64,000 nt of DNA from Escherichia phage YW01: the sequence record PV018828. One strand, given 5' to 3'. A model generated the notes under the pieces. That model did not search any database and was not told the origin of the DNA. It saw only the letters and a list, made by a program, of their open reading frames with translations. Below, in pieces: positions 38,698 to 48,466 of this stretch. Made by a program: the position numbers and the translations under genes. Numbering within the stretch: the stretch's first letter is position 1; the number at the start of each line of letters is the position of its first letter.

Positions 38698-38901
38698 TTA
38701 GTAGAACGAACGAATTTCATCCCACACTTGTTCCTGTTCTTTCCTATAAAAAGAAAGTTGGGTCTTGAACATCTCCACTGATGATTCAAAGTTTTTGGTT
38801 TGTGCAGCTTCAACGAAACGTTCATGTCGGTTGATTTTGCACCGTAGCATTAAATACTTGGCTTCAAGTCTCCGAAGAGCCTGCCTTTTCTCAAGATTCA
38901 C
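38698..38901 (-). CDS. hypothetical protein
   Basis: 67-aa ORF. Confidence 0.35.
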   Translation of the reverse strand: MNLEKRQALRRLEAKYLMLRCKINRHERFVEAAQTKNFESSVEMFKTQLSFYRKEQEQVWDEIRSFY

Positions 38902-39310
38902 TTTTCAGATACTCTGACCAGTCGCCAGATTCAACCAGAACATCTTGTTCTTCGTCGATATGATAAATCCAAGCGATCACAGTTTCACCTGAGTCCATCT
39001 TAACAGCAATCTGAGTACGCTGATAGAAGCTGTCTTCAGGGCTACGTTTGTTGTAACCTTCCAGACGGTCATACGGACCTTCCAGACCTGCTTTGTCAGT
39101 AGCAAACACTTCTACACGAACAGGCTTATTGTTATTACTGTGTGCGAGAGAGATGCTAGGGAAGTAGGAACCACCGTAACGGAACAGATCAAAGTTGTCT
39201 TCAGTCCAACCTTCACCAATTGACTTAGCACCAGCTCGGTCATTAACTAAATAGTTAGCTTGACCACGACGAAGAGAACCATAAGTTGCTACGTAAATTA
39301 CTTCTGACAT
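38891..39310 (-). CDS. gamma-glutamyl cyclotransferase-like (AIG2/GGCT family) protein
   Basis: N-terminal VIYVATYGSLRRGQANY (YGSL..G) and downstream Glu in LEGY. Confidence 0.6.
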   Translation of the reverse strand: MSEVIYVATYGSLRRGQANYLVNDRAGAKSIGEGWTEDNFDLFRYGGSYFPSISLAHSNNNKPVRVEVFATDKAGLEGPYDRLEGYNKRSPEDSFYQRTQIAVKMDSGETVIAWIYHIDEEQDVLVESGDWSEYLKSES

Positions 39311-39311
39311 T

Positions 39312-39521
39312 TTAAATACCTTTCCAGTCTTTCATGATGTTTTCAATGTAAGCACACTGCTGATCAGTGGCTCCTGTTACAAACACTTCTAACCCCAACT
39401 GCTCACAGAAGGGATTAAGAATCAATATTCTGGTTTGCCCATACGAGTGATGCTCTCGGTAGATAACACACCCAGCATCCCATACAGAGTTAATGGCTTT
39501 ACTCAATCTTTCATGTTTCAT
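39312..39521 (-). CDS. hypothetical protein
   Basis: 69-aa ORF. Confidence 0.35.
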   Translation of the reverse strand: MKHERLSKAINSVWDAGCVIYREHHSYGQTRILILNPFCEQLGLEVFVTGATDQQCAYIENIMKDWKGI

Positions 39522-39574
39522 AAAACCTCCAGCTTATCCGAACTAGCCTCCTCTTTCGAAGAGGCTAAAGCAGA

Positions 39575-39760
39575 TTACTCTGTAATAAAGATTTTGATTA
39601 CACCGCAGATTGCTGCACTCTCAAATACTGCAACAGCTTCACTTCCCTGAAAGAAGGCCACTTTGCCGTCAGAGAAGTTAAACATGTCAGCATCTAGGTC
39701 CATAGCTCGCATATCACCAGCGTCGTTAGTATCTTTAAACAGAACTTTATACTTATTCAC
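39575..39760 (-). CDS. hypothetical protein
   Basis: 61-aa ORF. Confidence 0.3.
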   Translation of the reverse strand: MNKYKVLFKDTNDAGDMRAMDLDADMFNFSDGKVAFFQGSEAVAVFESAAICGVIKIFITE

Positions 39761-45476: not shown

Positions 45477-45485
45477 GATAACCTC

Positions 45486-46292
45486 TTATGCTACCTGAAG
45501 GAGTTTGATCTGCTGGTCAGCTTCTTTAACGTTGTTCCCGTTAATGATTTCATGAAGCTTCTCAATCGGAAGGCGAGAGTGCAATGCCATCAGAGTGGAC
45601 ATATCACATTGCTGAACAACCTTGTCAACCTGATCGTAAACAAACTTACGGTTTTCACGATCACTAATCCAGAAGTTAGACAGAGAACGGTATTCAATAC
45701 CATAGTCTTTATAACGGATTGCAGATGCTTTACCGTAGAGTTCTTTACGGCGAGTATCTTTGTCCATAATTACTGCTGGGAGAGACAGGAAGTAGTCACA
45801 CAACACACCCAGCATCATCTGAGTTTGCAGAGTGATATCCAAAGCACCAACTACGCCAAGATGTACGTGACCACCGGCAGTACGAAGTCCCTTATTCTGA
45901 GAAGTCGGGGATGGGTTTTTCTGACCAGTGAAGGCGTTGAAATCAGGAGTGCACCCGAAGATGAACGCTGATTCATTAAAGGTCTTCATCTCTTCTTCAG
46001 TGAAGATGTGAGAGCTAACACCCGGAGCTGTTTCCATGTCCAGTTTGTTCAGGACATTATTGGTGAGATCAATACCACGTTGCATGTTATCGTTAAACGC
46101 TTCAAAACCGCTCTGTGGGTCAATATCAAACTCAGCCAGTACGTTGTCCTCTTGAAGACGAACATCCTTAGCCAGAGTGATCTTATCGTCCTTAGAACAG
46201 CCTAACAGACCAGCCACAGAGGTGATGATGCCATTGCTGGTACGAACGAACATTTCAGGGTCAGAGCCGATAAGGAATTTGCGCTTAGTCAT
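45486..46292 (-). CDS. second putative amidoligase-like protein (tentative)
   Basis: IGSDPEMFV acidic strand and GGHVHLG His motif reminiscent of GS/GCS2-like ligases. Confidence 0.35.
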   Translation of the reverse strand: MTKRKFLIGSDPEMFVRTSNGIITSVAGLLGCSKDDKITLAKDVRLQEDNVLAEFDIDPQSGFEAFNDNMQRGIDLTNNVLNKLDMETAPGVSSHIFTEEEMKTFNESAFIFGCTPDFNAFTGQKNPSPTSQNKGLRTAGGHVHLGVVGALDITLQTQMMLGVLCDYFLSLPAVIMDKDTRRKELYGKASAIRYKDYGIEYRSLSNFWISDRENRKFVYDQVDKVVQQCDMSTLMALHSRLPIEKLHEIINGNNVKEADQQIKLLQVA

Positions 46293-47256
46293 TGTAATAC
46301 TCCACTAGTTCAGAAAAGAGAGATGAGATTGTGTTACCAACTTCTTCAGTAGTAAGGCCAGAGCTTGGGCCAGTACGTTGAATTAGTCGGGCGGTAAAGT
46401 TTTGTACTGTAATGTTTCCCAACTTGTCGTCTATTGATTCACGTTTGTGACCATAACAGTTGGACCAGAGTCTTAACCACTCTGACATTGTTTCATACTC
46501 GTCCGGGTCTTGATCTTTAGCACGAGCAAATCTTCGTAAGGCATCTTGGTTATGGTTACGAACATAACCGTCCTTGTTGTCACCAACACCGAAGGGGTTT
46601 TGAACCCACACTTGCTTCGTATATTCATCAGAGTCTACAACCAAAGGAAGGAATGCTGCTGCTGACATATTGTTGTTAATAACAACAGATGTACTCTCGC
46701 TACTCCCATTGGCTCTTCCTCGTTGAGACCATCCACCGAAGAAGTCACGACCTAACCCAGCTAACACTAGAGCGATACCGATGCGTTTACGCTTCAGCCA
46801 CTCTTCCCTGTCTTCAATTCCTTCTGCTAGGAAATCCATTCCACGATATTGCCCTTCCAGAATACTGCGGAAGAGCATAAGTCCTGTGAAGATCTGATCT
46901 GCTGGATGCTCACGAAGGTTGACCGCGACACTATTCGCTGAAGTGATCGTAAATACGTCACGATAGCAAGACATAGAGTTCATAATGTCTGCTGTTTCAA
47001 CCAAGTTCTTTTCAATTTCAGATGTAACATGACCATGAAAAGAGTGAGTCCAGTAATTCAACATCTCCAATTGCAAGTTAATGTCGCGGTCGAAGCGCTT
47101 ATGACGCCCATCTTCCATGACACATTCGTCATTAATATCATATACGACTTGACCCTGCATGTAGTTGTGGATACCGAAGCATCCACGACCTAAGAACTTC
47201 TGTTCCCCTAAATCTTGTTGAAGATTAAGAGGTACGATCGTTGTGGAGATTGCCAT
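46285..47256 (-). CDS. hypothetical protein in amidoligase operon
   Basis: 323-aa ORF overlapping neighbours. Confidence 0.4.
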   Translation of the reverse strand: MAISTTIVPLNLQQDLGEQKFLGRGCFGIHNYMQGQVVYDINDECVMEDGRHKRFDRDINLQLEMLNYWTHSFHGHVTSEIEKNLVETADIMNSMSCYRDVFTITSANSVAVNLREHPADQIFTGLMLFRSILEGQYRGMDFLAEGIEDREEWLKRKRIGIALVLAGLGRDFFGGWSQRGRANGSSESTSVVINNNMSAAAFLPLVVDSDEYTKQVWVQNPFGVGDNKDGYVRNHNQDALRRFARAKDQDPDEYETMSEWLRLWSNCYGHKRESIDDKLGNITVQNFTARLIQRTGPSSGLTTEEVGNTISSLFSELVEYYND

Positions 47257-47266
47257 AACTAACCTT

Positions 47267-48466
47267 TTATTTTCCTAAAAATAATCCGCTCATAACACCA
47301 TCCCACTCAGAGGATGAGATCACTGAATATTCTGAACTTTGGTCCAGAGTTCCACTACTAAATCGCTGAACAATGTTATAGATGTTGAACAGATCTTTAG
47401 TTTCAGCACGAATGCCATAGACTAATTTATTAGCTGTTCTTTCATCTTTAGATACACGACGAGCAAAATTAACTAGCAGGTTGTCGCATTTCAGTGTTTC
47501 TGATTCATTCTCTACCAAATCGGGATGCATCACCGGCAAGAACATAGAGTTATTTACTCGTAATTCTGCTGTTTCGTCATTCTCATAATGAATCCATTTA
47601 AAGTCTTCATCACGGAAATGACCACACCCATCTCTGTATGACTGTTGACGCCAAGGCACTTGAAATGCTTCAGCATATTTATCAGCCATACCAACCGTAA
47701 ACAACGACGCTGGGAAGATACAAGCATCCCAATCATTACCAACCAGAGTTGCTTTCGTTTCACCTAAGAGGTTAGTGTAAGTGCTAACCATTCGGGAATA
47801 AACGTAAGCCTGAAGGATTGTCCAACCTTCAACCAACCATTTATGAAGGAAGGTTTCCACTTGACTCTCTTCATCTTCACAATAGAAGGTTCGATCTAAC
47901 ATTAAATAGAACAGACAACGATCAGCAGGAACGTTCTCAGTTGCTACACCCATAAAACCTTTTTCGTGCCAGCGTAAACAGGAGGGACGATCTTTGTCCA
48001 CAAATGCTTCCATAGCTTCCAGTACAGCACGAGGTGTGGTTTGATGTTCAGGGTTTTTACTATTCCAACGATCAATGTTATTCTTAGGAGGTGTGTCTTC
48101 ATCTTCATACGAACACCAACTTAAAGCTTCAGCTACATGCTTTTCGTCACGCCAGCGTCTAAAACCTAACATCTTCATGTGAGTTCCGGAGTTCCAGATA
48201 TGCTTGATTTTACACATATCCATCTCTCGGCTTAACAGGAACTCTTCCCCATCAGCACTACGAACGTTAGCTTCTTCATGCCACACTCGAACGTGCATAT
48301 TCCACCCATGAGTTGCCTCATACATGTTAGGGTCGAAGTAGTCATCATCTTCGTCATCGTCTTCATCAACGCCACCGTTATAGTTGCGAAGCTGAAGGAA
48401 CCCATAACAAGGAGGGTTGACCGTTAAAACATTACCTTCAGTATCTTCTAATGTTACTGGAAACAT
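47267..48466 (-). CDS. hypothetical protein with poly-acidic stretch
   Basis: 399-aa ORF; DEDDDEDDDYFD segment. Confidence 0.4.
   Translation of the reverse strand: MFPVTLEDTEGNVLTVNPPCYGFLQLRNYNGGVDEDDDEDDDYFDPNMYEATHGWNMHVRVWHEEANVRSADGEEFLLSREMDMCKIKHIWNSGTHMKMLGFRRWRDEKHVAEALSWCSYEDEDTPPKNNIDRWNSKNPEHQTTPRAVLEAMEAFVDKDRPSCLRWHEKGFMGVATENVPADRCLFYLMLDRTFYCEDEESQVETFLHKWLVEGWTILQAYVYSRMVSTYTNLLGETKATLVGNDWDACIFPASLFTVGMADKYAEAFQVPWRQQSYRDGCGHFRDEDFKWIHYENDETAELRVNNSMFLPVMHPDLVENESETLKCDNLLVNFARRVSKDERTANKLVYGIRAETKDLFNIYNIVQRFSSGTLDQSSEYSVISSSEWDGVMSGLFLGK

Follow-up and report, generated by a model that had tools for sequence, protein, structure and literature searches.

A phiEco32-type amidoligase cassette in Escherichia phage YW01: conserved gene order, enzyme families, and predicted amide chemistry

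Introduction

A set of genes for carboxylate-amine ligases and a glutamine amidotransferase (GATase) is found in phiEco32 and other phages, and this cassette, which is among the most widespread phage enzyme modules without an assigned function, has been a sequence-only prediction since 2009. In the passages of later papers that cite Iyer et al. (2009), it is described as predicted from sequence to modify the peptide side chains of peptidoglycan, and the citing passage of an OM43-phage paper suggests a cell-wall modification, made by the amidoligase and GATase of phiEco32, that prevents superinfection. As listed in such later papers, the module of LUZ24-like phages comprises five enzymes only, i.e., a gamma-glutamyl cyclotransferase (GGCT), an ATP-grasp ligase, an Ntn aminohydrolase, an amidoligase, and a COOH-NH2 ligase. 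A jumbo-phage review does not discuss the cassette. Here we examine it in Escherichia phage YW01 (record PV018828), where it lies at 38891-48466 of the 64,000-nucleotide stretch analyzed (referred to as the window; 64 of ~77 kb). An earlier inspection of this DNA (referred to as the sequence-only reading) had described a candidate amide-bond modification system of a kind predicted computationally in phages, which the citing passages above bear out, and had named no experimentally defined product; our search of a literature library found none either.

Comparable chemistry is known from gamma-glutamyl protecting-group pathways, namely butirosin biosynthesis, with the ATP-grasp enzyme BtrJ and the AIG2-like cyclotransferase BtrG, and the Puu pathway, with the glutamine synthetase (GS)-like PuuA and PuuD of the Peptidase C26 family. 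The Pup ligase PafA and the deamidase Dop are protein-tagging enzymes similar to GS and gamma-glutamylcysteine synthetase (GCS); carboxylate-amine ligases of this GS/GCS kind make gamma-glutamyl-lysine isopeptides on proteins, and GGACT-type enzymes degrade such isopeptides.

The cassette had already been predicted computationally in a phage closely related to this one, and the finding itself is therefore not novel. The initial observation is correct and its general biochemical reading sound, and the most useful additions made here are a rigid, phage-restricted five-gene core, a swap between GGCT and Peptidase_C26 (C26) accessories, the pairing of Amidoligase_2 with the class II GATase (GAT-II), the gp87/gp88 family, and evidence against DNA modification. 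We propose, with a probability of about 0.6, that the region is a phiEco32-type phage amidoligase cassette yielding a short amide-linked adduct that derives from glutamate and is placed on a peptide-type acceptor.

The Cassette Locus

In a megablast search of phage records with 38891-48466 as the query, 98 records matched, and the 65 that cover at least 80% of the query are all Escherichia or Shigella phages of the phiEco32 group, with nucleotide identities of 97.3% to KM01, 96.9% to SU10, and 96.6% to phiEco32. The source of the window is, judging from these matches, a Kuravirus (Gordonclarkvirinae). In the phiEco32 RefSeq annotation the region corresponds to phi32_77 to phi32_88, followed by phi32_75 (primase/helicase) and phi32_74 (DNA polymerase exonuclease). 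The two phages have the same genes in the same order and show essentially no difference, except that the window adds one 69-aa open reading frame (ORF; 39312-39521), which lacks a counterpart in the phiEco32 annotation and is matched by a same-size ORF at the same position in one related viral contig.

The cluster consists of 13 ORFs, all on the minus strand, with intergenic gaps of -20 to +79 nt. The sequence-only reading was thus right about their common direction and too low in its count of ten, while the overlaps of 4-8 nt that it described are confirmed by the ORF coordinates (4 or 8 nt at 44859/44862, 46285/46292, and 39757/39760). Five ORFs are small (39312-39521, 39575-39760, 39757-40005, 41208-41432, and 41413-41646). 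Three large ORFs, rather than the four motif-less proteins first reported, are without a Pfam match (44859-45476, 46285-47256, and 47267-48466). From high to low coordinates, the ORFs are:

47267..48466, minus: gp88-like protein, 399 aa, distant gp87 paralogue, with no match among solved structures
46285..47256, minus: gp87-like protein, 323 aa, of a ~300-aa family whose gene directly precedes that of the COOH-NH2 ligase in several phage lineages
45486..46292, minus: COOH-NH2 ligase type 2 (GCS/GS-like carboxylate-amine ligase), phiEco32 gp86, PF14395
44859..45476, minus: gp85-like protein, 205 aa, two small beta-barrels, its gene invariably placed between those of the GS-like ligases
43759..44862, minus: Amidoligase_2 (GS-like carboxylate-amine ligase), phiEco32 gp84, PF12224
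41649..43679, minus: Ntn (class II) glutamine amidotransferase, gp83, GATase_6, ATT start
41413..41646, minus: DUF7195 small protein, 77 aa, PF23825
41208..41432, minus: small lineage-specific ORF, 74 aa, phiEco32 gp81, annotated in phiEco32 and matching phrog_13464 only
40012..41205, minus: RimK-like ATP-grasp ligase, phiEco32 gp80, by profile match to RimK-family structures
39757..40005, minus: homologue of the transcription factor gp79, at the position of phi32_79
39575..39760, minus: gp78, small ORF, 61 aa
39312..39521, minus: 69-aa ORF, phrog_13365, between the GGCT gene and gp78
38891..39310, minus: GGACT/AIG2-like gamma-glutamyl(amine) cyclotransferase, phiEco32 gp77, PF06094

Families of the Five Enzymes

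The GGCT-like, ATP-grasp, Ntn amidotransferase, and amidoligase assignments of the sequence-only reading are upheld by Pfam and profile hidden Markov model (HMM) searches, and its "one or two" amidoligases are two (PF12224 and PF14395). The cassette is thereby predicted to encode three ATP-dependent carboxylate-amine ligases (gp80, gp84, and gp86), a stand-alone GAT-II (gp83), and the gamma-glutamyl-cleaving gp77. The last of these matches PF06094 (E 3.4e-17; 63.6 bits against a cut-off of 22.8) and phrog_2520 (E 1e-44), and the GGCT motif YGxL (Y10-G11-L13) is kept in 30 of 31 sequences and the catalytic-type E84 in all 31.

As a single sequence, the ATP-grasp protein gp80 has weak Pfam matches (Dala_Dala_lig_C, 5e-3; RimK, 1e-2), and a 15-sequence profile matches crystal structures of the RimK family of alpha-L-glutamate ligases at E 2e-11 over ~210 residues. 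The matched structures (7qyr, 5zct, and 4iwx, E ~1e-11) are of the RimK/LysX/MptN type and are matched across the central and C-terminal ATP-grasp domains. K85, R159, K173, D229, E241, and N243 are invariant, and the Mg-ATP-binding Lys and Asp/Glu/Asn residues expected of the fold are present in the gp80 family. Against NCBIfam, gp80 has weak matches to MptN, RimK, and Ddl, all under the cut-offs; it reaches 31.6 bits with TIGR00768 (cut-off 143.4) and 25.1 with PRK10446 (cut-off 331), i.e., ~32 bits where the equivalog cut-offs range from 143 to 350. It also differs from these ligases by a C-terminal extension of ~130 aa without an assigned domain, which follows an ATP-grasp core at ~1-265. 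We therefore regard gp80 as related to the RimK family at the superfamily level only, and its RefSeq name, "ribosomal protein S6 glutaminyl transferase," is unjustified in specifying a substrate.

The match of gp83 to GATase_6 (E 1.1e-14) covers only the N-terminal ~200 aa. An Ntn domain (~1-225) is followed by a linker of low complexity and by a C-terminal half that is rich in Cys, as first described, and has CxxC pairs; this 446-aa part and its counterparts in six other phages contain no Pfam domain, and only the CxxC motifs are conserved among them. NCBIfam matches to GlmS, PurF, AsnB, and EgtC are weak and all far under their cut-offs. The predicted start, at 43679 as in the sequence-only reading, reads ATT-TGT and gives (M)CGIV, with the catalytic Cys right after Met and a Shine-Dalgarno sequence (GGTGGA) upstream. 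This C2 is conserved in 64 of 71 homologues, and the glutamine-pocket residues R86, N111-G112, and D129 (GlmS equivalents R73, N98-G99, and D123, aligned to 1xff) are kept in at least 68 of 71. The seven homologues without C2 are attributed to start codons miscalled by the ORF caller; they were not individually checked. As to start codons, the GAT-II start is ATT in Kuravirus (window 43677-43679, minus strand), ATC in Pseudomonas phage K4 (locus L007, 7663-7665), and ATG in five other lineages; the ATT and ATC starts directly precede the catalytic Cys codon, 7 nt past a good Shine-Dalgarno sequence. The deposited annotations of Bjorn gp23 and K4 gp24 begin at internal ATGs, so that the catalytic Cys is lost. 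Since GAT-II has no synthase domain of its own, the enzyme that accepts its ammonia must act in trans, and Amidoligase_2, which is encoded directly upstream, is the obvious candidate.

Amidoligase_2 (PF12224, E 4.5e-8; phrog_7469) carries a C-terminal extension of ~100 aa without an assigned domain, and its residues E31/E33/E35, H95/H97, E119, and E186/R188 are kept in 70-72 of 72 sequences. The COOH-NH2 ligase is 100% identical to phiEco32 gp86 and matches phrog_3815 (E 3e-118) and PF14395 (E 2.2e-8; 34.1 bits, cut-off 25), a family that Pfam names "Phage phiEco32-like COOH.NH2 ligase-type 2"; D11/E13, E54, H142/H144, R193, and E200/R202 are its conserved residues over 62 sequences. Profiles of both ligases found nothing among PDB sequences, and Pfam searches with the C-terminal halves of GAT-II, ATP-grasp, and Amidoligase_2 gave noise only. 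In NCBIfam, 7 of the 9 cluster proteins scanned have no match. None of the cluster proteins has a PADLOC match, and there is therefore no tie to known defence components.

Conservation Across Phages

A tblastn search with the COOH-NH2 ligase found 306 phage records, with hosts including Pseudomonas, Escherichia, Vibrio, Aeromonas, Proteus, Salmonella, and Cronobacter. Cultured podophage carriers include Kuravirus, 7-11-like, and LUZ24-like phages as well as PA11 and Vibrio Zobellviridae, and in the annotated neighbourhoods of GAP52, Bjorn, a LUZ24-like phage, LAh_6, K4, and Phriendly the same block stands just ahead of the primase/helicase gene. A scan of IMG/VR yielded at least 595 cassette-bearing viral contigs, of which 80 diverse ones were kept. 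With HMMs built from cultured-phage proteins, Amidoligase_2 was detected in 79 of these 80 loci, GAT-II in 78, ATP-grasp in 71, the COOH-NH2 ligase in 70, and the gp85-like protein in 51. The order COOH-NH2 ligase, gp85-like, Amidoligase_2, GAT-II, ATP-grasp is near-invariant (~70-79 of 80 loci): GAT-II directly follows Amidoligase_2 in 74 of 79 loci and is followed by ATP-grasp in 65, and the median gaps at these junctions are -4 to +4 nt. Between the two GS-like ligases, 67 of 69 loci have a single ORF of 100 aa or more, which in 65 cases is 183-258 aa long. Because the same gene order recurs in 80 of 80 sampled viral loci, the arrangement is far beyond chance.

It is very improbable that the region is no single functional system, its adjacency being simply inherited with an early/replication block shared by related podophages. 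The cluster does sit within a long early transcription unit and is no operon of its own, unrelated genes (gp79 and small ORFs) are interspersed, and T7-like primase/helicase and split DNA polymerase modules are common to cassette-bearing phages. However, the order and near-zero spacing of the five-gene core are kept in Kuravirus, Grimontviridae, Lahexavirus, Bjornvirus, LUZ24-like phages, Zobellviridae, and uncultured marine phages, while the flanking genes differ completely, and the core is retained when the gamma-glutamyl-cleaving accessory is swapped between two unrelated folds.

Among cellular genomes, one per species for 100,044 bacterial and archaeal species, only 21 loci were found, nearly all of them on phage-sized contigs of metagenome-assembled genomes (MAGs) or tiny contaminant scaffolds. 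The cassette is thus, from these scans, essentially phage-restricted. Almost all "bacterial" matches to the COOH-NH2 ligase lie on 45-50 kb MAG contigs or tiny scaffolds (e.g., Herbiconiux daphne, 0.5-1.1 kb), and one "Peptococcaceae" MAG contig with the gene is 99% identical to Kuravirus; these contigs look like mis-binned or contaminating phage DNA.

The Gamma-Glutamyl-Cleaving Accessory

The strongest clue to the chemistry of the cassette comes from the accessory gene. A GGCT only is present in 35 of the 80 loci, a class-I-amidotransferase-like protein only in 33, both in one, and neither in 11. The class-I-amidotransferase-like protein belongs to Peptidase_C26, the gamma-glutamyl hydrolase family (E 3.2e-19), and its Cys-His-Glu triad is intact in 33 of 33 sequences. 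The near mutual exclusion of the two has a Fisher's exact p of 1.2e-11, a value that overstates independence because the loci are phylogenetically related. As two unrelated gamma-glutamyl-cleaving folds fill one slot, the swap points to one shared cleaving step, i.e., a gamma-glutamyl amide would be made and then cleaved. The Pfam text for Amidoligase_2 reportedly describes a similar alternation in bacterial neighbourhoods, where either a GATase-like thiol peptidase or an AIG2 cyclotransferase is present, and the alternation may therefore not be new either.

Partner Proteins

Besides the enzymes, we propose non-catalytic or novel partners, namely the gp85 double beta-barrel, DUF7195, and the gp87/gp88 paralogues. 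The gp85-like protein consists of two small beta-barrels and lacks a catalytic signature. In Kuravirus, 7-11-like, LAh6, Bjorn, and LUZ24-like phages, the gene for the DUF7195 protein (PF23825, E 4.7e-17) comes right after that for GAT-II, and an HMM detected it in 13 of the 80 viral loci.

Neither Pfam nor the PDB gave a match for gp87. In profile-profile comparison (hhalign), gp87 aligns with a 7-11/LAh6 family at 91% probability (E 1.2e-6), this family with a K4/marine "K20" family at 97% (E 6.8e-11), and gp88 with the 7-11/LAh6 family at 43% (E 2.4e-4). Shared collinear motifs, PADxxFxxLMxxR and WxQ...G(Y/H)xR, are also visible, and the many invariant polar residues of gp87 include H117, D120, R130, E151, R156, R158, E187, R233, and H235. 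Both proteins are narrowly distributed at the sequence level, the gp87 profile matching only 23 clusters among 1.84 billion representatives. The two proteins are thus paralogues, and their family, which is phage-only and unmatched among solved structures, constitutes a sixth common member of the cassette. As candidates for further divergent ligases they were rejected, with hhalign probabilities of 0.1-0.7% against the two GS-like ligase families. Separately, a 1945-aa protein (P0091) has nine matches to positions 211-245 of the gp87 profile (E 3.6e-10) and is an unexplained repeat protein.

Proposed Mechanism and Acceptor

In the proposed scheme, Amidoligase_2 would turn a carboxylate into an acyl-phosphate and GAT-II would provide glutamine-derived ammonia, a two-component amidation like that of MurT/GatD. 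Alternatively, GAT-II could act as an EgtC-like gamma-glutamyl amidohydrolase; the weak EgtC, PurF, and GlmS matches cannot decide between the two roles. The COOH-NH2 ligase, with gp85 as a putative adaptor, and the RimK-like ATP-grasp enzyme would then attach gamma- and alpha-linked glutamate or another amino acid, and a gamma-glutamyl group would be taken off by GGACT or C26 as deprotection or turnover, comparable to BtrG in butirosin and PuuD in the Puu pathway. The outcome would be the short adduct on a peptide-type acceptor. Synthesis and turnover of a glutamyl-type amide-linked product had already been proposed from the sequence, and it is still the natural reading of a conserved cassette of ligases, an amidotransferase, and a gamma-glutamyl-cleaving enzyme.

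Three known systems resemble parts of this scheme. Like MurT-GatD, which amidates the iso-glutamate of peptidoglycan, the cassette pairs an ATP-dependent ligase with a separate glutaminase, and this pairing logic is consistent with the published cell-wall hypothesis. However, MurT has a Mur-ligase fold and GatD is class I, whereas the cassette ligase is GS-like and its amidotransferase Ntn class II; Pfam found no Mur-ligase domain in any cluster protein, and the analogy is functional only. The BtrJ/BtrG and PuuA/PuuD pairs share with the cassette a gamma-glutamylation that is later removed by GGACT/AIG2 or Peptidase_C26 enzymes, the very families that alternate here. They differ in that each has a single ligase and small-molecule substrates that are known, with an acyl carrier protein also present in the butirosin pathway, whereas the cassette has three ligases, an Ntn amidotransferase, and phage-only partners. 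PafA/Dop are likewise carboxylate-amine ligases of the GS/GCS superfamily; in PDB searches with the cassette ligases, neither PafA nor Dop was matched in sequence. Nor was a Pup-like tag ending in Gln or Glu identified; the C-termini of DUF7195 and gp85 are non-conserved, and the other small ORFs are lineage-specific.

As for the acceptor, a peptidoglycan stem-peptide precursor, as in the published prediction, and a protein or peptide are both possible and rank about equally, each as a tentative assignment. A free metabolite ranks somewhat below these two, and DNA or a nucleotide comes last, as a quite improbable acceptor.

A free small-molecule product, i.e., a gamma-glutamyl compound (for example, a thiol peptide, a conjugate of a polyamine, or the glutamyl tail of a cofactor) that an auxiliary metabolic pathway would make in place of a macromolecular modification, is accordingly a possibility of the lower order given to a metabolite acceptor. 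Glutathione synthesis (GshA/GshB) follows the same logic of a GCS-like ligase and an ATP-grasp enzyme, the NCBIfam names nearest to the ATP-grasp protein include the cofactor glutamylase MptN, and GAT-II shows its weak likeness to EgtC, but all these matches to named small-molecule enzymes are far under family cut-offs, and the best solved relatives of the ATP-grasp protein are protein-modifying RimK enzymes. The Peptidase_C26 and GGACT families act on small gamma-glutamyl amines, and thioredoxin-like, Dps/ferritin-like, and ThyX proteins are encoded in the window; yet a transporter or export gene is absent, and the conserved gp85 barrels, DUF7195, and the Zn-ribbon extension of GAT-II suggest macromolecular recognition or a complex.

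Several points weigh against the peptide-type adduct that we favor. All of its mechanistic steps derive from family membership and gene order, and the GGCT/C26 alternation partly tracks phylogeny. In the 11 loci with neither gene, 7-11-like phages included, no GGCT or C26 lies within 10 kb, and the cleavage step may therefore be dispensable or performed by GAT-II. Nothing in the present evidence separates a peptidoglycan from a protein acceptor, and a target associated with nucleic acids or ribosomes would suit the barrel-type and Zn-ribbon modules as well.

The cassette is now genetically tractable in Kuravirus isolates able to plate on E. coli K-12 (BASEL Bas90 and Bas91). With the product identified, it would become clear how a lytic phage uses three ligases, an amidotransferase, and a gamma-glutamyl-cleaving enzyme, and several phage-only protein families would also receive functions.

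DNA Modification and Restriction

The sequence-only reading had placed the cassette beside thymidylate/dCTP metabolism genes and advanced a DNA-modification role. These genes are present, although not adjacent:

33997-34530: dCTP deaminase, 4.4 kb from the cluster
30814-31470: ThyX (PF02511, E 6e-43), 7.4 kb from the cluster

Between them and the cluster lie the primase/helicase, an EndoVII/HNH ORF, the DNA polymerase exonuclease, and a CCA-nucleotidyltransferase-like gene. The product of ThyX is ordinary dTMP. In a Pfam scan of selected ORFs of at least 100 aa in the window, which covers 64 of ~77 kb, ThyX was the only hit among thymidine-hypermodification genes: no ThyA-like dUMP/dCMP hydroxymethylase, 5-hmU DNA kinase, aGPT-pyrophosphorylase, or DpdA-like transglycosylase was found, nor a glycosylase-like gene, and a 299-aa P-loop protein has a weak AAA_18 match only.

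Restriction sites are strongly avoided across the whole window: CCWGG occurs once (~71 expected), GATC 142 times (305 expected under a Markov model), and six-base palindromes 642 times (825-1077 expected), with 14 of the 64 palindromes absent, the PstI, SacI, KpnI, and NcoI sites among them. Such very strong avoidance is expected of DNA that restriction enzymes see unmodified. Further, 11 of 16 restriction enzymes cut the genomic DNA of U17, a LUZ24-like phage that carries the homologous cassette.

According to the BASEL study, Gordonclarkvirinae are remarkably resistant to restriction-modification (RM) and have no known modification or inhibitor. EcoRI (7), EcoRV (25), EcoKI (9), and EcoP1I (96) sites remain in the window, so absence of sites cannot explain this resistance. 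Hypermodification of phage DNA or of nucleotide precursors by the cassette would account for it, and it would agree with the position of the cassette next to replication genes in most lineages and with some metagenomic contigs that combine amidoligase/amidotransferase Pfam genes with thymidine-hypermodification genes. We nevertheless consider it improbable, given the missing hypermodification genes, the site avoidance, and the sensitivity of U17 DNA; besides, DNA offers no carboxylate to three carboxylate-amine ligases unless another enzyme adds one. A small early anti-restriction protein seems a more likely cause of the resistance than the cassette. Unlikely, too, is a broader possibility in which the cassette and its phage-only partners (gp87/gp88, the double barrel of gp85, and the GAT-II Zn-ribbon tail) would form a multi-enzyme machine that adds a glutamate-derived amide adduct to a host or phage macromolecule and thereby underlies the broad RM resistance; the macromolecule could be DNA itself or a protein that is ribosomal, part of RNA polymerase, or bound to DNA.

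Transcription and Expression

In SU10, the cassette genes belong to an "early" block (CDS 69-125) that is transcribed leftward from sigma70 promoters at the right genome end and is terminator-free. As this unit encloses the cassette without a terminator, the genes are co-transcribed in a long early unit and are not a private operon; the proposed operon thus stands as co-transcription and falls as a dedicated unit. On the minus strand inside or just upstream of the cluster, we found no match to the phiEco32 gp36 promoter consensus, and scans of the cluster for sigma70-like and terminator-like signals gave results that were at or below shuffle expectation or unconvincing. One sigma70-like match (TTGTCA-17-TATAAT, 11/12; 41017-41045, minus) lies on the coding strand inside the ATP-grasp gene and may be due to chance, the regional total of such matches being below the shuffle expectation. 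Mass spectrometry of a PEG-concentrated SU10 lysate detected the ATP-grasp, GATase, YtfP/GGCT, and gp85-homologue proteins.

The gp79 gene is embedded in the cluster and unrelated to amide chemistry. The protein is an RNA-polymerase-binding transcription factor that displaces sigma70 and stabilizes the phage sigma factor gp36 (PMC8948821, PMC12276001), and it is missing from 7-11/GAP52, where the cassette is kept. Elsewhere in the window, the gp36 promoter consensus, TAATGTATA, occurs exactly at 21932-21940 and 29147-29155 and with one mismatch at 33348-33356, in agreement with the published positions of P40, P58, and P68. Another exact match, at 61070-61078 on the minus strand far upstream of the cassette, has no obvious counterpart among the six published promoters and could drive middle-phase transcription through the cluster, gp79 included.

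Other Genes in the Window

The Endonuclease_7/HNH-like ORF noted above (36444-36887, minus; PF02945, E 1e-19) lies between the DNA polymerase exonuclease and primase/helicase genes and is probably a homing endonuclease insertion, because phiEco32 has no gene there; further HNH ORFs are at 31439-31909 and 52745-53167. The window also encodes a SLOG/YAcAr-family protein (19077-19469), a Macro domain (20133-20573), a calcineurin-like phosphoesterase (22419-22922), and the CCA-adding-enzyme-like nucleotidyltransferase (34540-35958), a set that suggests handling of ADP-ribose or nucleotide signals together with tRNA repair.

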